From contig JAUQVK010000083.1 in assembly GCA_039794845.1 (NCBI GenBank), positions 1 to 38,366 on the forward strand: a DNA stretch of 38,366 nucleotides, read 5' to 3'. Below the pieces are notes generated by a model. It had not been told where the DNA came from. It saw nothing but the letters and a program-made list of their open reading frames with translations, and ran no database searches. This stretch comes from Thermostichus sp. DRC_bins_24. Its GTDB lineage: Bacteria; Cyanobacteriota; Cyanobacteriia; Thermostichales; Thermostichaceae. Below, in pieces: positions 2 through 35,722 of this stretch; positions within the stretch are counted from its first letter, which is position 1; every line of letters begins with the position of its first letter. A program made the translations under genes and the position numbers.

Positions 2-181
2 GTGTGTTGTTATTTGCTGCCCCGCTCCAACTTGTTAATTCGAGACAAGCTGCGCTCAGAACTCCAGCCCGGCGCACGTCTGGTTACCCATTCTTTTGAT
101 ATGGGAGATTGGCTGCCGACGGCTACAACTACGGTGTCGGATGTGATCAATACCTACACGGTCTATCTTTGGCAACTCTAA
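2..181 (+). CDS. 3' end of a class I SAM-dependent methyltransferase (truncated by window edge)
   Basis: Frame 2 reads VCCYLLPRSNLLIRDKLRSELQPGARLVTHSFDMGDWLP...VYLWQL-stop (TAA 179-181). YLLP..N..LR.KL..EL.PG.R.V.H.FDMGDW is a typical methyltransferase C-terminus. Confidence 0.75.
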   Translation: MCCYLLPRSNLLIRDKLRSELQPGARLVTHSFDMGDWLPTATTTVSDVINTYTVYLWQL

Positions 182-205
182 CTCTCTTTTCTTTAGCTCT
201 TTTCT

Positions 206-625
206 TTAGCTCTGGGGATCCCAATCCATCGCTTGCCAAAAGGCAGCGGCAGGCTGATGCACCACAATGCGGTTGCCATCCGGGTCGAGGAAATCCACCT
301 CTTGCCCGTGAAAGTCCTGCCGAACCGAAGAAACCGGGAGCTGATAGTCTTCCAGCACCGCCTGGAGTTCGGATAGGGATCCCTGTAAATCTTGCACCTG
401 CAAACACAGACTCACCGCCCCCGCCCGAGCCACAAAATCCGGATGATGACTGCGGTAAAGCCCCAACCGCAACCCCGGCAGGCGAAACTCCACATACACC
501 GGATCCCCTTCTGTCGGAATGCAGACCTGAGCAGGGATCCCCAGCAAAGACCGGTAAAAGTGACAGAGGCGGGGCAAGTCGGGGGTAGCCAAGCTGGTCA
601 AAGCCGCAGGGATCCACATCGCCAA
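206..625 (-). CDS. VOC/glyoxalase-bleomycin resistance family protein
   Basis: 139 aa with FYRSLLG and the C-terminal G.EVDFLDPDGNRIVV motif. Confidence 0.85.
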   Translation of the reverse strand: MAMWIPAALTSLATPDLPRLCHFYRSLLGIPAQVCIPTEGDPVYVEFRLPGLRLGLYRSHHPDFVARAGAVSLCLQVQDLQGSLSELQAVLEDYQLPVSSVRQDFHGQEVDFLDPDGNRIVVHQPAAAFWQAMDWDPQS

Positions 626-782
626 TGGGGAATCAGTATTTGGATCCTAGCCCAATTGCCCGCCTTAATCCGATGGATAGGGTTCGGCACAAATCGAACG
701 CGAATTGGAAATGCGTTGTAGTTCTGTTACAGACAGCTTGCCTTTGCCATAAGACCGATGTAAACTGCGAAAACTAAGTTCT

Positions 783-7369: not shown

Positions 7370-8944
7370 TTAAGGGGAAAGGGAGATCCGGATCCGAACC
7401 TGTTCCCGCCGTTCTTCAAAATCGCTGATCAACAGGGCCAGATCAATCTGCCATTCCCCCGGCAAGGCTAGGGGCACATCCTTCAATTCAAATTGCCCGG
7501 ATTCATCCGGCAAAACCCTGCGGCGCAGGGGGGGGATCCCCTGTTCCGGCAACGAAAACCCCAGGGTCAACTCTTGGGCGGGGATCCCTTCCACCTTCAC
7601 CCGAATCTGATTCTCACCCGGACGACAGGGGGAAAGTTGGATGTGCAAGCTGCCCTCCGGCCAGTTCAAACTCTCTTCACAACCGGGCTCCGCCGGGGAT
7701 CCCATGCCATGACTGGGGGGAGCCTGGGCCACCAGAAAACTCGTCAAGGCCAGCACCAGGAGCAACCCCACCAACTCCAACCGGACGATCTGACGGAGGG
7801 ACTGCTGTACCGCCCGACTGCCCTCTTGCAGCGCAGGCACCAGCCGGAACTTGTTGTGGGCACCCAACCCCACGATCATCAACACCAAGATCGCCTTGGC
7901 CCAGAGATACTGCCCATAGGGATGATCCCAATCCCAACCGCGATGGATCCCGCCCATCCCCACCCCTGCCAGGATTAGTCCCGGCACCACCCAGGTGGCG
8001 AAGTCCGAAAACCGTCGAATCACGTTGGGGGATGAAGCAGCAGACTCCCCGCTCAACAGCCGATCCAACCCCCACAACCCCCCCAACCAAAAAGCAGATC
8101 CCGCCAGATGCAACCCCAATAGGGCCATTGTTACTAGGGGATACGGGCTGGTAAGGGCATGGCCAATCGGTAAAAAGGAGCCCATCACCAGCACCGATCC
8201 GAGGCCGCTGGCCCAACCTGCCCCTCCCTCGCAGGCCCAGATCAGGATCCCCAACCCCAGCAGCCGCAGCTCTAGACCCCAGCCGTAGGGGGATGCCAAC
8301 ACCGACCGCAACTCTGCCCCGGAAAACCGGGGGTATAACTGCGCCATGTGCAAACAAAAGGCCACCACCGTCAAACTAAGTGTCAGCCAAGCCGCCGCAA
8401 AGGCCCAAGATCGGGTTCCCAGGTTCAGCTGACCCCGCAGTACCCGCCACCAGCCCAGCACCCCTACCACAAACAGGCTGCCCAAGTAGACCCCCCAGCG
8501 CACCATCAGCAGCGGCCAGTACAAGGGATCCCTGGCCTGAGCGCGGGCTGCCAGCAGCGCCTGTAAGGCTTGCGGATCTGCCTCTCCCACTTGAAACACA
8601 AACGATCCGCTCACCGGATGGGAATCGGCAGAAATGGCCCGCCAACTGACGATGTAAATCCCCTCCGGGATCCCTTCCGGTAAATCCGCCTGTGGCCCAT
8701 CGCCGGTGGCTAAAAGATTCTCCAATTCCAGAGCTTGTCCGGTGGTATCCAAAACCTGTAGCTGAGTGATTTGTACCGACTCATTAAACTGCAGCCGAAT
8801 CTGTGTCGGGGCCTCCTGTAACACCGCTCCATCCGCCGGGAAAGTAGAGAGCAAACTGGCATGAGCGAAACTGGGTTGGATCCCTGTCAGCCACAGCAAC
8901 AGACAGAGGATCCCGATTAGGATGGACTTGAAGAAATAAGGCAT
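7370..8944 (-). CDS. CopC-CopD fusion (YcnJ-like copper uptake protein) with C-terminal soluble domain
   Basis: Signal peptide, then mature N-terminal His (HASLLSTFPADG) and WRAISADSHPVSGS (CopC Cu site). CopD TMs carry GHA, LHLAGSAFWLGGL and RRFS. ATG at 8944 follows an AGGGG RBS. Confidence 0.9.
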   Translation of the reverse strand: MPYFFKSILIGILCLLLWLTGIQPSFAHASLLSTFPADGAVLQEAPTQIRLQFNESVQITQLQVLDTTGQALELENLLATGDGPQADLPEGIPEGIYIVSWRAISADSHPVSGSFVFQVGEADPQALQALLAARAQARDPLYWPLLMVRWGVYLGSLFVVGVLGWWRVLRGQLNLGTRSWAFAAAWLTLSLTVVAFCLHMAQLYPRFSGAELRSVLASPYGWGLELRLLGLGILIWACEGGAGWASGLGSVLVMGSFLPIGHALTSPYPLVTMALLGLHLAGSAFWLGGLWGLDRLLSGESAASSPNVIRRFSDFATWVVPGLILAGVGMGGIHRGWDWDHPYGQYLWAKAILVLMIVGLGAHNKFRLVPALQEGSRAVQQSLRQIVRLELVGLLLVLALTSFLVAQAPPSHGMGSPAEPGCEESLNWPEGSLHIQLSPCRPGENQIRVKVEGIPAQELTLGFSLPEQGIPPLRRRVLPDESGQFELKDVPLALPGEWQIDLALLISDFEERREQVRIRISLSP

Positions 8945-9055
8945 ACCCCTAACAACAAGTTTTGCGTGAACAAGGAAAGTATCTAATCCGTGAGATAACT
9001 GCCATGACAACCGATACCGATCTCCTCCAAACACTCTCTTAAAAAAGAAGTTCTT

Positions 9056-9921: not shown

Positions 9922-10527
9922 CTAAGGGTGGGAGTGGCCGTGGGAATGCCCATGACTGTGACCATGCCCATGGGCGGTTGGATTCTCTGTGAGCTTCAAC
10001 AGTGGGGCCGGTTCCGGCAGATCGTGGGGATCCTCACCCGGTTGGGCCACTTGGATCCAGCGGTGGATCCCTGTTTCGCACTCTTGCACCACCGGGATAG
10101 GAATGGTCTCGCCGGGCCGATCCGGCAACTTCAAAAGGATGCTGAATTCATCCACAAACTCATCTGGCAGTAGCCCACCCGACCAAATCACTTCCGCGAC
10201 GGTTTCGGTGATCATCCGCCCGTGGGATTCGTAGGGGGTTTCCAGCGGCTTTTTCACGGTCTCAATTTCCCACAGGGGGTGCACCATCGGCTTTACCGAA
10301 GTCGCCCCCTCCGGGATCTGCACCCGCAACCGGGTGGTTGGGGATCCCTCACAGCCGTGGGGAACGCGAAAGGTTAATTTGGCATGGCTACCGGCAGGTG
10401 CCTCTTTGGGGTTAACCGTGACATGGGCAAAAGCGGGGGCAAGAGCCAGAAAAGCTGAACCCAAAGTTAAGCTAAGCTTTGCTCCCAAGGACAAACGATT
10501 CTGCGACTTCAACATTAACTTCAACAT
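9922..10527 (-). CDS. YcnI (DUF1775) family copper-binding protein with His-rich tail
   Basis: Signal peptide, then HVTVNP, FRVPHGCEG, W.GG.LP and PVVQEC..W, ending HGHGHSHGHSHGHSHP. Confidence 0.9.
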   Translation of the reverse strand: MLKLMLKSQNRLSLGAKLSLTLGSAFLALAPAFAHVTVNPKEAPAGSHAKLTFRVPHGCEGSPTTRLRVQIPEGATSVKPMVHPLWEIETVKKPLETPYESHGRMITETVAEVIWSGGLLPDEFVDEFSILLKLPDRPGETIPIPVVQECETGIHRWIQVAQPGEDPHDLPEPAPLLKLTENPTAHGHGHSHGHSHGHSHP

Positions 10528-19557: not shown

Positions 19558-20286
19558 ATGAGCCCCCTCTATCTTTACGGGATCGTTGCTGCCCCTGGCC
19601 CGCGCCACTTGAGTGTGGTGGGCTTGGACAAGCAGCCGGTACACATCCATCTGCTGGGATCCCTGGCCTTCGTTTATTCACAGGCCCAACAGGAGCGCTA
19701 CCTGGCCAGCCGGGCCAATTTGCTTGCCCACGAAGCGGTGCTGGAAAAGGTGATGAACGAGGGGCACCATGCCCTGTTGCCTTTGCAATTTGGCCTGGTG
19801 GTGAACAGCTGGGAGCAGGTGGAACGAGATTTGGTGGAGCCGCGCCTGGCGGATCTGTTGGCTTTGCTCGAGCGCCTAGAGGGGAAACGGGAGGTGGGGG
19901 TGAAGGTCTTCTGGGATCCCGAGCAAGAGTTGCAACTGGGCTTGGCGGAAAACCCGGCCTTGAAAGCCCAGCGGGATGAGATGGCGGGAGCCCCCCTGGG
20001 GTTGGATGCGGTGGTGCAAATCGGGCGAGCCTTGGAACAACTTCTGGAGCGACGGCGGGAGCAGATTGCCCAATCGTTCACGAAAGCCCTCAGTCCCCTG
20101 GCCAGCGACCGCGTGGAGGGAGAGTTGCTCACCGAAAACATGGCCTACAACGGCTCGTTTTTGATCAACTGGGAGGACGAGCCCACCTTTGCCCAAAAAG
20201 TGGAGGAGCTGGATCAGGCCTTTCAGGGGCGGCTGCGCATTCGCTACAACAACTTCACCGCTCCCTACAATTTTGTCAAGCTCTAG
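19558..20286 (+). CDS. gvpF: GvpF/GvpL family gas vesicle protein
   Basis: LYLYGI, GLDKQPV, ERYLASR.NLLAHE.VLE, LLPLQFG and IRYNNFTAPYNF. Confidence 0.85.
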   Translation: MSPLYLYGIVAAPGPRHLSVVGLDKQPVHIHLLGSLAFVYSQAQQERYLASRANLLAHEAVLEKVMNEGHHALLPLQFGLVVNSWEQVERDLVEPRLADLLALLERLEGKREVGVKVFWDPEQELQLGLAENPALKAQRDEMAGAPLGLDAVVQIGRALEQLLERRREQIAQSFTKALSPLASDRVEGELLTENMAYNGSFLINWEDEPTFAQKVEELDQAFQGRLRIRYNNFTAPYNFVKL

Positions 20287-20318: not shown

Positions 20319-20705
20319 TCAGGCCAAGCCGTAGCGGGCCAAAAACCGCGGCAGATCCACCACAAAGCAGCCATAGGATCCCTGCATGACAAGCCGCTCC
20401 TGCTGCCGGATCTGCACCTGAAACGCAATGCGCCGTCCTTCCACACCGACCACCTCCACCCGCACCTGCAAGGGATCCCCCACCACCGCCGCCGCCTGAT
20501 GCTCTAGGGCAAAGCGGATCCCGACGGCGGCTTCGTTGGCTTCGTAGAAGGGCTGTAGGGTGGTGTGGCTGCAGCGCTCGATCAAGGTCAGTAGAGCCGG
20601 GGATCCGATCACCTTCACCCCCCGGTTACCCAGGGCTTCCGCCGTGTGTTCCGGCCCCAGGATCCCTTGCCAAGTGCCCGTGGTACCGAGAGGAAGGGGT
20701 TTCAT
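20319..20705 (-). CDS. Hot-dog fold thioesterase (fluoroacetyl-CoA thioesterase FlK-like)
   Basis: EHTAEALGN..V.VIGSPALLTLIE and VG....LEH.AA..VG. ATG at 20705 overlaps the upstream stop (ATGA). Confidence 0.82.
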   Translation of the reverse strand: MKPLPLGTTGTWQGILGPEHTAEALGNRGVKVIGSPALLTLIERCSHTTLQPFYEANEAAVGIRFALEHQAAAVVGDPLQVRVEVVGVEGRRIAFQVQIRQQERLVMQGSYGCFVVDLPRFLARYGLA

Positions 20706-22210
20706 CCCGGTTGCCGCAGCCGCAGTTGTTGCCAGACACTCCACCCCTGCCAGAGCAAAAGCAGCAGCAGCCCAGCGCCGCCGATCCCCCCCAGCACCAA
20801 AGCCCGTTCGACGCGGGTGGCGTAGAAGCCGGTCACCGTCCAATCGCGGCTGAGGCTGGCCGTGAGCATGGCGATCACCGTCAGGCACAGCCCCTTGGCC
20901 CCCAGCAACCCCACTTGCTTGGAGACCACCGGCTCCAAGGCCGCCAACACCAGGGCCGTCATCAGGGCCCCCAGGAGAAAGGCAGCCTGGGGTTGGGCAT
21001 GAATCAGGTAGCCCACCCCCAAAGGCAGGGCCAAACTGGCCAAGGTCAACCCCAGTCCAATCGTCAGGGGCTTGTCTCGTCCGTACAGCCAGCCGATCAG
21101 CCCCGCCAGCAACACCGCGGCAATGCCCAGGTACAAAGCGGCAGAGACATAGGCCTGGGTGAGGTCGATGCCGGCAACCTGCAGGTTGAACTGGTGCAAC
21201 AGATTTTGCAGCAGGGGTCGGGCTGCCAAAAACAGTGCCGCCATTGCCCCCCAACGGCTGGGAAAGGCCAAGCACCCCAACCCCAGCAGCGCCGCCCCGT
21301 AGGATCCCCCCAAGCGCAAGGCCAACAAGGCCCCACCCCCTACCATCACCAAGCCCAGACAGGCCCGCCAGAGCAGTAGCCCTCTCGGCTCAGGTTCTGA
21401 GGTTGGCTCCACAGAATCGGCGGCTCCCATTTCCTGAGCTCCCTCCAGCAGCGACAAGCCCCAGGAGACCAGCCCCCCAACCCCAAAGAGCAAGGCCAAA
21501 AAGAGATCCTGATATAGCCCGTTGCGAGCCAATACCAGTGCCAACGTGGTAGCCACCAGCCAGCCCACCCCATGCCCCAAAGCGGAGAGTAGCCCCGGTT
21601 GAATGGGAGTTTGCTCCCGGTCAGGAGCTGCCAACACCGGCACCGTGCCCGCCACCAAACTGAGCGCCGCCAACCCGACGGGCAACAGCAAGGGTCCAGG
21701 CCAATCCTGCTGGGATCCCATTTCCATCAGCCGGGATCCCCAGGTTAAGGCTGCGATCCCGATCCACCCCTGGCTCATGGCCAACAGCAAAGGCACCGCT
21801 TCTGCGGTCGTCATCCGCCACAACAACGGGATCCCCACCACACCCATTCCCACGCCGCATCCCCACAGCAATAGCAACAAGTCGAAAGATCCCCCTTCTA
21901 GGGCTTGCCAGGTGGCCCCGCTGAGCAACAGCACCACCAACCCCTGCCCTGCCCGCCCACACCCGCTCAAGCCTACCAACCCACACCCGATCAGGCCCCC
22001 CACCAGCACAGCAACGCTGACGGGCAGTTGCCCCAGCCCCAACCCCAGCGCCAGCAGGGCATTCAGTCCCATCACCAGTCCCAAATCCCAGCGACGGATC
22101 CCTGCCCAACGATGGTGGCGGATCCCTGCTCGCCGGCTCCTGGCGAGCCCGTCCAACAGCAAAATCACCAGGCCAATCGCAGCGGCAATGGCCAAAATTC
22201 CTGTTACCAT
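20702..22210 (-). CDS. Multi-pass membrane protein (~16-17 TM), probable degenerate membrane-pyrophosphatase-fold protein
   Basis: ATG at 22210 follows a GGAGG RBS. About 502 aa, nearly all hydrophobic helices with short loops. Helix motifs resemble HppA (see findings). The CDS itself is confident; the fold call is tentative. Confidence 0.6.
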   Translation of the reverse strand: MVTGILAIAAAIGLVILLLDGLARSRRAGIRHHRWAGIRRWDLGLVMGLNALLALGLGLGQLPVSVAVLVGGLIGCGLVGLSGCGRAGQGLVVLLLSGATWQALEGGSFDLLLLLWGCGVGMGVVGIPLLWRMTTAEAVPLLLAMSQGWIGIAALTWGSRLMEMGSQQDWPGPLLLPVGLAALSLVAGTVPVLAAPDREQTPIQPGLLSALGHGVGWLVATTLALVLARNGLYQDLFLALLFGVGGLVSWGLSLLEGAQEMGAADSVEPTSEPEPRGLLLWRACLGLVMVGGGALLALRLGGSYGAALLGLGCLAFPSRWGAMAALFLAARPLLQNLLHQFNLQVAGIDLTQAYVSAALYLGIAAVLLAGLIGWLYGRDKPLTIGLGLTLASLALPLGVGYLIHAQPQAAFLLGALMTALVLAALEPVVSKQVGLLGAKGLCLTVIAMLTASLSRDWTVTGFYATRVERALVLGGIGGAGLLLLLLWQGWSVWQQLRLRQPG

Positions 22211-22333
22211 TTCCCCCTCCTTGCCGACCCTTACCCAACTATCGCCTATGGCAAACAAAGGGTTTACCGGTCAGCCCAAGAACACCCAGGGGGCAGCGAA
22301 GATAAGCTGTAGGAAGGCGGCTACTGTGCGTTC

Positions 22334-34454: not shown

Positions 34455-34543
34455 TCACGTCTGCCGGGATCCCTGGAGGAATGAGTCACACTGAAGCTAG
34501 GTCGCAGAAGCGGCGCGTAGCGCACAATTCCGAGGAGCCAAAC

Positions 34544-35722
34544 ATGAGCAGGAGCTTGCTGGAGCAGTTGCGGCAGATGACTGTCGTGGTCGCCGATACC
34601 GGTGACATCAATGCCATCGAGAGTTTCAAGCCTCAAGACGCCACCACCAATCCCTCTTTAATTACCGCTGCTGCCCAAATGCCTCAGTACCAGGGCATTG
34701 TCGATGAAACCTTGCTCAAAGCCCGCCAAGAGGTGGGATCCCAGGCGGACCCACGAACGGTTGTTTCCCTTGCCATCGATCAGCTGGCGGTTGCCTTCGG
34801 CTTGCGGATCTTGTCGATCATCCCCGGACGGGTGTCTACCGAAGTGGATGCTCGCCTCTCCTACGATACCGAAGCGACAGTGGCCAAGGCCCGCTACCTG
34901 ATTAGCCAATACAAAGCTGCTGGAGCGGATCCCAGCCGGGTGCTGATCAAGATCGCCTCCACCTGGGAAGGAATCCGAGCTGCCGAGATTCTGGAAAAAG
35001 AGGGGATCCACTGCAACCTCACCCTGCTGTTCGGCCTTCACCAAGCCATTGCCTGTGCCGAGGCGGGGGTGAAGCTGATTTCGCCTTTCGTGGGCCGCAT
35101 TTTGGACTGGTACAAGAAAAATACGGGCAGAGAGAGCTATCCACCTGCCGAAGATCCAGGGGTAATCTCGGTAACGGAGATCTACAACTACTTCCGCAAA
35201 TTCGATTTTCCCACCGAAGTGATGGGGGCGAGCTTCCGCAACATTGGGGAAATCACGGAGTTGGCAGGCTGCGATCTGCTCACCATTTCACCGGGGCTGC
35301 TGGCGGAACTGCAAAACACCCAAGGGGATCTGCCCCGCAAATTGGATCCCGAGAAGGCGAAAAAACTGGATATCCCCCGCCTGGTGATGGACAAAGCCAC
35401 CTTCGACCAAATGCACAGGGAAAACCGCATGGCCTCGGAAAAGCTGGAAGAGGGCATCCAGGGGTTCTCGAAAGCGTTGGTGGCCTTGGAAACCCTACTC
35501 ACCGAACGGCTGCAGAAGTTGGAGGGCAACAAGGAGGTTGTTACCCATGCCGCCCAGGACGTGTTCCGCGTCTACGACCTGGATGGGGATGGCTTTATCA
35601 CCCGCGAGGAATGGATGGGGGCCGACCGCGTGTTCGATGCTCTCGATGCCAACCAAGACGGCAAAATCACCCCCGAGGAGATGTTGGTGGGGCTGGGGGC
35701 AGCCGTCTACCTGAAAAAGTAA
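34544..35722 (+). CDS. tal: Transaldolase with C-terminal EF-hand pair
   Basis: [25 protein letters not shown] and ISPFVGRI, plus EF-hands [12 protein letters not shown] and [15 protein letters not shown] at 34544 follows GAGGAG. Confidence 0.96.

Follow-up and report, generated by a model that had tools for sequence, protein, structure and literature searches.

What does a hot-spring cyanobacterium do with a membrane protein that consists of little besides transmembrane helices and shares an operon with a small thioesterase? The question is raised by a 38,366-nucleotide (nt) stretch of contig JAUQVK010000083.1 of Thermostichus sp. DRC_bins_24, hereafter the window, in which a minus-strand open reading frame (ORF), read from 22210 to 20702, translates into a protein of 502 amino acids (aa). 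Leu (23%), Gly (15%) and Ala (13%) together make up 51% of this protein, whilst Asp accounts for 2.0% and Lys for 0.6%. The sequence AAGGAGGGGG, a strong Shine-Dalgarno site, lies 2 nt 5' of the ATG; an alternative TTG start 48 nt farther 5', which would give 518 aa, has no comparable ribosome-binding site. An earlier note, made from the letters of the window alone, had described the protein as ~502 aa of almost nothing but transmembrane (TM) helices with very short loops, its stop overlapping the ATG of a thioesterase gene, and had proposed a catalytically dead core of the membrane-bound pyrophosphatase (mPPase, HppA) type coupled to that thioesterase. The ORF, the overlap (an ATGA) and the predicted structure all agree with this description. 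The explanation that we favour, with modest confidence for the whole, is that of a membrane family with the mPPase fold that is not a pyrophosphatase and would act as a conduit or transducer for the cell envelope.

Predicted fold and missing pyrophosphatase chemistry

The case for an mPPase-type core comes from structure prediction. A first AlphaFold2 model, based on 15 sequences, had a predicted local distance difference test score (pLDDT) of 61.4, and its top eight Foldseek matches were mPPases at non-significant E values of 0.04-0.1. A model based on 65 homologues reached a pLDDT of 91.8 and a predicted template modelling score of 0.92 (87.5-91.8 pLDDT over the five models), the best model having 16 long helices linked by loops of 2-12 residues. 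Foldseek comparison of this model with the PDB gave 33 matches at E <= 1e-3, and ranks 1-36 were all mPPases (from T. maritima, P. aerophilum and V. radiata; best E 2.9e-6, query template modelling (TM) score 0.43-0.63), the first other fold appearing at E 0.05 with a TM-score of 0.16. Independently of Foldseek, VIA-align was run against 48,161 representative chains, with the tool's guidance that chance matches between helical proteins have Z below ~13. The two leading chains were 5gpj_A (Z 27.4, root-mean-square deviation (rmsd) 3.4 Å, 464 residues aligned, 13% identity) and 8b37_B (Z 27.0, rmsd 3.3 Å, 446 aligned, 18% identity), and the third-best chain had Z 8.1. Among the 21 mPPase entries listed from the Foldseek matches, Z ranged from 27.3 to 37.1 and rmsd from 3.3 to 3.7 Å with 446-464 of the 502 residues aligned, the next fold reaching Z 7.2; the best superposition was that on 6qxa_D (Z 37.1, rmsd 3.3 Å over 458 residues, 15% identity). 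Since Z values of 27-37 stand against a chance level below ~13, we accept that the predicted fold is very probably that of the mPPases, and the rise in pLDDT as natural sequences were added speaks for genuine co-variation behind the model. The prediction and Foldseek comparison that the earlier note had proposed thus speak strongly for its mPPase-type core at the level of predicted structure, no other fold coming nearer than Z 7.2-8.1. From the ESM Atlas no usable lead was obtained, its own model having a pLDDT of 0.40 and the best feature score, 0.78, lying below the noise bar.

The likeness to mPPases is invisible to sequence and profile methods. Against Pfam and NCBIfam the membrane protein matched no family even at E <= 10, so that the profile check against PF03030 suggested in the earlier note came back empty, and the family profile matched no PDB sequence at E <= 10. 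Against a reference alignment of eight true mPPases encoded in this phylum, hhalign gave a probability of 1.1% for family alignment A3 (the 65 members) and of 0.2% for a second alignment, A1, with a range of 0.2-1.7% over all runs; a reversed mPPase profile scored 15.0 as a control, against 21.6 for the best forward segment. Comparison of the N-terminal with the C-terminal half of the family by hhalign (score 18.5, probability 0.9%) revealed no internal repeat and, taken as a second control, shows a similar level of noise. By BLASTP against a true mPPase the best E value was 0.65, one query segment matching two different mPPase helices; a hidden Markov model (HMM) of the mPPases gave at most 7.9 bits on family members, at inconsistent positions; and PF03030 matched one of the 65 members (E 0.0081), no better than did unrelated membrane families. 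The weak forward profile matches are collinear (Table 1) and fall on the same helices that the earlier note had named. Because the profile tests lie at noise level, the five helix-motif resemblances listed there do not demonstrably rise above chance and are by themselves no evidence.

PMC6882861 describes mPPases as homodimers with 16 helices in two concentric rings, the hydrolytic centre of which (12 conserved acidic residues together with K5.58, K15.64, K16.38 and N12.53) sits on helix extensions reaching ~20 Å into the cytoplasm, with a coupling funnel that includes R5.50, D6.50, D11.50 and K12.50 and an ion gate that includes D6.50, D16.46 and K16.50. On the predicted model the 16 TM helices in two concentric rings are found, helix 16 lying outside the aligned core, whilst in the family alignment nothing of the hydrolytic centre is recognizable. 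At a threshold of at least 90% of rows, the 65 members share no column of Asp, Glu or Lys, whilst the eight mPPases share 35 (17 of Asp, 6 of Glu and 12 of Lys); catalytic motifs such as GDTVGDPFKD are plain in the mPPase consensus and absent from that of the family. Mean length is 490 aa for the family and 694 aa for the mPPases, and loops of 2-12 residues replace the cytoplasmic helix extensions. The charges of funnel and gate are likewise missing, R299 and R331 being the only conserved charges. Given this want of conserved acidic residues and lysines, the family protein is, on its sequence, not a pyrophosphatase; and since the helix extensions have gone together with the conserved Asp and Lys, its members are predicted to be incapable of hydrolysing pyrophosphate or pumping ions in the mPPase fashion. 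The earlier note was therefore right about the absent Asp/Lys-rich catalytic segments and the ~200-aa shortfall with shortened cytoplasmic loops; its term 'catalytically dead' is to be limited to pyrophosphatase chemistry, as the family keeps a conserved polar cluster of its own. Set beside the mPPases (PF03030), then, the family is alike in a predicted bundle that superposes over ~460 residues and in helices 1-8 that run N-terminus-out by the positive-inside rule. It is unlike them in having no profile match, in its length and short loops, in lacking the conserved Asp and Lys of centre, funnel and gate in favour of a different polar set, and in having a last helix outside the common core and one mPPase helix with no obvious helical counterpart.

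That last difference is seen in every superposition, where the range used of the model ends at residues 464-471 and that of the mPPase chain at its last residue (for example, model 3..464 on T. maritima 2..726); therefore 15 model helices span 16 mPPase helices. Counts of Lys and Arg per loop over the 65 members were 1.0-3.1 for loops 1-2, 3-4, 5-6 and 7-8 and 0.15-0.42 for loops 2-3, 4-5 and 6-7, which by the positive-inside rule indicate an N-terminus-out orientation for helices 1-8. In the C-terminal half the values were 1.3-2.2 for loops 12-13 and 14-15 and the C-terminus, and 0.03-0.5 for loops 11-12, 13-14 and 15-16, a parity opposite to that of a simple 16-helix count. As a working hypothesis on the register, helices 1-11 would correspond to mPPase helices 1-11, the coil at residues 341-352 would cross the bundle in place of mPPase helix 12, helices 12-15 would correspond to mPPase helices 13-16, and helix 16 would be an addition that brings the C-terminus back to the cytoplasm. 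This register fits the superposition ends, the Lys and Arg counts and the collinear profile matches together, and matches the last two motif pairings of the earlier note. The mPPase homodimer forms through helices 10, 13 and 15.

The family and its conserved polar residues

A word-index search returned 16 homologues, of which 11 are full-length, have 61-67% identity and carry Thermostichus or Synechococcus names and five are more distant; repeating it with a 65-sequence profile added no member. When 1.84 billion representatives were searched exhaustively with HMMER, 79 proteins came within E <= 1e-3, and no match exceeds 564 aa. The majority of the distant matches are 470-490 aa long and align best over residues 280-490, and the few distant members that bear a name are from Melainabacteria or Obscuribacterales. 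No significant Pfam family was found in the 29 distant members scanned, and Pfam, NCBIfam and the PDB hold no record of the family. Pairwise ratios of nonsynonymous to synonymous substitution (dN/dS) of the membrane gene against five related loci were 0.18-0.26, leaving out the near-identical pair L004-L005, for which the ratio is higher and unreliable. The membrane gene is thus real and under purifying selection, and the concern of the earlier note that full-length homologues under such selection might be wanting has no basis in these data.

By family-profile search, 24 of the 301 sampled genomes of the phylum carry a member, two of them in the genus of the window and 22 non-photosynthetic, the latter spread over five families of classes other than that of the window. 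None was found in the sampled other families of the window's own class. A sister genus in the same family (G335) has the membrane gene, which is absent from two genomes of a further genus and from one more genome of the order. As far as sampled, this is a small, undescribed family of ~450-560 aa that is, on its sequences, restricted to Cyanobacteriota. In a protein tree (FastTree, with local support values and midpoint rooting) the Thermostichus clade of 10 rows is sister to six other cyanobacterial rows and with P0024 these form a 17-row clade at 99% local support, nearly all other rows lying on the opposite side of the midpoint root; the shape of this tree is compatible with vertical descent. 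The search for an intact hppA that the earlier note had called for gave no PF03030 gene in the window's own genome, which is 99.93% complete, and a canonical mPPase alongside the family gene in all 22 non-photosynthetic carriers. Of 151 genomes sampled across the phylum, 92 have a PF03030 mPPase; every one of these belongs to a class other than that of the window, and the genomes sampled from the photosynthetic class yielded none. In family f23, 50 of 50 genomes encode an mPPase of a type that is longer and divergent (E ~1e-177, open frames of 800-855 aa).

Four residues, R299, G302, Y354 and H404, are invariant in the 65-member alignment, and G123, W157, G291, G305, F327, R331, Q335, G347, A357, G362 and G461 are nearly so (G305 and Q335 in 64 members, R331 in 61, F327 in 59). 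The positions on which at least 80% of members agree gather at the end of helix 10 (G291, R299, G302, G305), on helix 11 (F327, R331, Q335), in the coil between helices 11 and 12 (N344, G347, I348, N349, H352) and at the start of helix 12 (Y354, A357, A358, G362), with H404 between helices 13 and 14 and, as helix 15 draws to its end, G461 and A464. Outside the Thermostichus clade the coil has the consensus xNxNVTGINLTHxY, H352 is present in 55 of 55 members and E406 in 51 of 55. The family accordingly has, in its alignment, a conserved polar set of its own, made up of R299, R331, Q335, N344, N349, H352, Y354, H404 and E406. The 10 rows of the Thermostichus clade show ten clade-specific fixed differences, five of them in the cluster (N344Q, T346A, N349D, H352Q and E406Q, Gln standing at 406 in all 10) and others elsewhere, including W151G and L457W. 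The putative site is remodelled in exactly the clade that has the thioesterase neighbour.

Gene neighbourhoods

In the window the membrane gene and the thioesterase gene form a two-gene unit with a divergent TIR-TPR gene on its 5' side and a convergent GvpL/GvpF-like gene on its 3' side (Table 1). The downstream gene is of the FlK type, as the earlier note had it: it matches Pfam FlK (PF22636) at 6.7e-20 and 71.6 bits, against a cut-off of 27, over nearly the whole model (positions 3-101 of 103). NCBIfam YbgC models matched weakly (7.6e-4, 19.8 bits), far from the equivalog cut-off of 141 for TIGR02799. For most pairs of thioesterase genes dN/dS was 0.08-0.19 (0.10 for L002), the near-identical L004-L005 pair having a higher, unreliable value, and H69, E43, E55, E58 and T49 are invariant in 14 orthologues; the catalytic arrangement of FlK is Thr/Glu/His. 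Of the 201 genomes of the class that were searched, the ten of the window's genus all have an orthologue, and in the other 191 none was found at E <= 1e-5; a database search likewise gave matches to Thermostichus-type sequences only, at identities of at least 75%. The thioesterase gene lies directly 3' of the membrane gene in nine of the ten genomes of the genus and in five of 12 public loci. The ATGA overlap recurs in L001 and L003, whilst the gap is 18 nt in L004 and L005 and ~28 nt in L002. One 2.2-Mb genome of the genus keeps the thioesterase gene, 105 nt from a TIR-TPR gene, and has no membrane gene genome-wide, and the sister genus G335 has the membrane gene without the thioesterase. Since the thioesterase is confined to this genus and each gene is found alone, the pairing is, on these distributions, a recent operon at genus level and not obligatory for the thioesterase. 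The coupling to a thioesterase claimed in the earlier note hence stands as adjacency within the genus and falls as a trait of the family, distant relatives having a SpoIID neighbour instead.

Amongst the non-photosynthetic loci the neighbour scan was confined to ORFs of at least 160 aa (129 of the 213 candidates of at least 110 aa). Fifteen of the 18 loci have a SpoIID-domain gene 3' of the family gene and in the same orientation, and the three without it have less than 1.5 kb of downstream sequence each. In four loci (L029, L033, L036 and L038) a penicillin-binding protein (PBP) transpeptidase-domain gene is directly 3' of the family gene; three of the four, L033 excepted, have it between the family gene and SpoIID, the sequence of L033 ending before any SpoIID could appear. 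Beyond SpoIID, three of the four larger regions (L046, L047 and L049) have an alpha-2-macroglobulin gene, very large and of the bacterial type, and in L046 and L047 an AMMECR1 gene was detected as well. In non-photosynthetic Cyanobacteriota the family gene heads a cluster (L046 7121-14000, L047 6869-13999 and L049 3-6321) with an optional PBP gene, SpoIID, AMMECR1 and alpha-2-macroglobulin, which recalls the pairing of alpha-2-macroglobulin with PBP1c in envelope defence of other bacteria. A search of the literature on SpoIID in Melainabacteria returned nothing relevant. Seven cyanobacterial loci at middle distance showed other neighbours: hemB (5-aminolaevulinate dehydratase, ALAD; PF00490) directly 3' of the family gene in three (L009, L011 and L012) and a nickel/cobalt-type transporter gene close by in two (NicO in L007, HupE/UreJ in L008). 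As functional clues these neighbourhoods were dropped, being too inconsistent among the seven loci.

Elsewhere the window carries ordinary genes of a cyanobacterial chromosome, among them psbO, hisG, aroB, asd and dnaG. By the names of its homologues the DNA belongs near Thermostichus (Synechococcus JA-type); the only DNA data sets listed for it are labelled as metagenomes from hot springs, and no RNA data set was listed. A scan for promoters and terminators gave no promoter-like site and four terminator-like sites, with 3.2 expected. The TIR-TPR protein has 81-90% identity across the genus, compared with 61-67% for the membrane protein, and its synteny is kept in L001-L005 and L054. No other gas-vesicle gene was seen among the window ORFs scanned. 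The CopC-CopD fusion and DUF1775 genes, with the c-type cytochrome gene near them, suggest a small copper-handling cluster.

Table 1. Positions of the membrane gene, its notable segments and other features of the window; residue numbers refer to the membrane protein or the family, as stated.
Feature	Coordinates	Strand	Basis or remark
Membrane-protein gene (P0001), polytopic, predicted mPPase fold without hydrolytic centre	20702..22210	minus	ORF, homologues, dN/dS, AlphaFold2 model
Shine-Dalgarno-like AAGGAGGGGGAA, abutting the ATG at 22210	22211..22222	minus	Sequence reading
ATGA overlap of membrane-gene stop (TGA) and thioesterase-gene ATG	20702..20705	minus	Sequence reading
Residues 299-340: end of helix 10, FPSRW turn, helix 11	21191..21316	minus	Alignment consensus, column conservation
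Residues 341-354 (FNLQVAGIDLTQAY), most conserved coil of the family	21149..21190	minus	Column conservation; coil and 4-residue helix between helices 11 and 12 in the model
Residues 404-406 (HAQ)	20993..21001	minus	H404 in 65/65; column conservation, clade differences
Helix 16, residues 466-499	20714..20815	minus	Most hydrophobic helix (hydropathy 2.41); outside the core superposing on mPPases
Family residues 67-84, on mPPase TM3			Weak profile match
Family residues 172-246, on mPPase TM7-9			Weak profile match
Family residues 297-343, on mPPase TM11 to start of TM12			Weak profile match
Family residues 348-427, on mPPase TM13-15			Weak profile match
FlK-type hotdog thioesterase gene, 128 aa, same operon	20319..20705	minus	Pfam PF22636
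TIR-TPR gene, 699 aa	22334..24433	plus	N-terminal TIR PF13676 1.4e-19, ~13 TPR repeats; 123 nt from membrane gene
GvpL/GvpF-family gene	19558..20286	plus	PF06386 4e-68; converges on thioesterase gene
CopC-CopD fusion protein	7370..9034	minus	Near c-type cytochrome gene
DUF1775 (YcnI-like) protein	9922..10527	minus	Near c-type cytochrome gene
Transaldolase (PF00923) with C-terminal EF-hand	34481..35722	plus	Side observation in the window

Weighing the readings

In the explanation that we favour, the conserved polar residues would line the central pathway that mPPases use for their ion, and the protein would be a conduit (passive or secondary) or a transducer in the service of the cell envelope. 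The envelope enters because the gene shares an operon with the peptidoglycan enzymes SpoIID and PBP in distant relatives, and this part, a conduit for the envelope, we hold as tentative, somewhat short of probable. In Thermostichus the site is altered and the gene would be translationally coupled to, or co-expressed with, a cytoplasmic acyl-CoA thioesterase, a pairing that may be accessory and not obligatory. The gene ybgC, encoding a thioesterase, lies in the tol-pal operon of Gram-negative bacteria, which serves envelope maintenance, and offers a loose precedent: there too the gene for a small acyl-CoA thioesterase of the hotdog type shares a transcript with that for an integral membrane protein. 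The resemblance ends with the YbgC score, far below 141 bits, a membrane partner unrelated to TolQ/R, and FlK as the best Pfam family.

Several observations weigh against this explanation. No sequence or profile method ties the family to the mPPases, which leaves predicted structure as the sole ground for homology, and AlphaFold2 was trained on mPPase structures. The helix register is ambiguous, with 15 helices laid over 16-helix chains and a positive-inside count that flips in the C-terminal half, and the residues that would line the centre and the membrane face of the conserved cluster are likewise ambiguous. The conduit role is drawn from fold and context, with no conserved acidic residue for ion binding. 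Nor is the genomic context uniform: in the window's genome SpoIID is not adjacent, its three SpoIID genes lying on other contigs, and thioesterase and membrane gene each occur without the other. Finally the Thermostichus clade, in which H352 and E406 are replaced, may have lost the ancestral activity.

That the bundle transports nothing and is purely a membrane scaffold or anchor, positioning SpoIID and PBP outside and, in Thermostichus, the thioesterase inside, is the strongest of the alternatives, and one that we regard as unlikely. Tight linkage to partners (SpoIID in 15 of 18 loci, the thioesterase in nine of ten genomes with the ATGA overlap), a partner that differs between clades whilst the fold is kept, and the same want of a conserved acidic residue for ion binding would all suit it. 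What is most strongly conserved, however, are polar residues, in helices 10-12 and in a pair of short loops, and not surface loops that could dock a partner; R299 and R331, which are taken to be buried, would be left unexplained, and in one genome the thioesterase persists without the membrane protein.

The same polar residues invite the thought of a new active site, in which H352, H404, E406, Y354, R299 and R331 would work on a cell-wall substrate in the membrane or periplasm, for example a lipid-linked pyrophosphate, the Thermostichus proteins being inactive, reused derivatives. Conservation of H352 (55 of 55), E406 (51 of 55) and H404 (65 of 65), together with invariant Y354 and R299, is what such a site might show; the positive-inside count puts loops 11-12 and 13-14 on the outer face, PBP and SpoIID genes are in the operon, and the ancestral fold handles a pyrophosphate. 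Although it is, with the scaffold, one of the two rivals still to be reckoned with, we find an enzyme of this kind distinctly unlikely, as the family matches no known phosphatase, transferase or polymerase family, the membrane side is ambiguous and the substrate is pure conjecture.

Could the fold match itself be an artefact, or convergence, an unrelated 16-helix transporter having been forced by AlphaFold2 onto a learned mPPase template? Every sequence and profile test at noise level, the poor ESM Atlas model of the same sequence (pLDDT 0.40), and a helix count and parity that are not one-to-one with the mPPases are what one would then expect. Yet with 65 instead of 15 natural sequences in the alignment the pLDDT rose from 61 to 92, which speaks for co-variation rather than memorization, and all five models lie at 87.5-91.8; Z is 27-37 over ~460 residues and 7-8 for every other fold; and the weak forward profile matches are collinear with the superposition, the reversed control scoring lower. 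An artefact or convergence is thus improbable. A decaying hppA remnant or spurious ORF, suggested by a protein ~200 aa shorter than the mPPases in a genome with no intact hppA, we count as already refuted, because dN/dS is 0.18-0.26 and intact mPPases sit alongside in 22 of 22 non-photosynthetic carriers, with full-length homologues in 24 of 301 genomes of the phylum and common invariant residues in 65 sequences; the protein tree, moreover, sets the photosynthetic rows apart from nearly all others.

Beyond a conduit or transducer with the mPPase fold, a further-reaching proposal can be sketched, which we put forward as speculative and rather doubtful. The family might be a living relative of the membrane core ancestral to the ion-pumping pyrophosphatases, or else their stripped descendant. 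Its coil xNxNVTGINLTHxY would serve as a filter-like strand down the middle of the bundle, replacing mPPase helix 12, so that the path of a pump would have become a channel or carrier for peptidoglycan remodelling. Thermostichus would then have rewired the site (H352Q, E406Q, N349D) and joined it to a thioesterase.

In the sources searched, mPPases figure as an enzyme family apart, self-contained and with its own architecture, and a full-text search of open-access papers found no published non-catalytic or 'mPPase-like' relative. The architecture is known, then, whilst the non-catalytic, shortened and differently equipped branch appears to be undescribed. The case also shows that structure prediction, given enough aligned distant homologues, can bring out a likeness that Pfam and HH-suite miss. 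Under the explanation favoured here the family would be a natural experiment on the mPPase membrane core alone, bearing on the debate over how hydrolysis and ion transport are coupled, and could help in tracing how these ancient pumps arose; to the cell-wall gene clusters of non-photosynthetic Cyanobacteriota it would add an unknown player.

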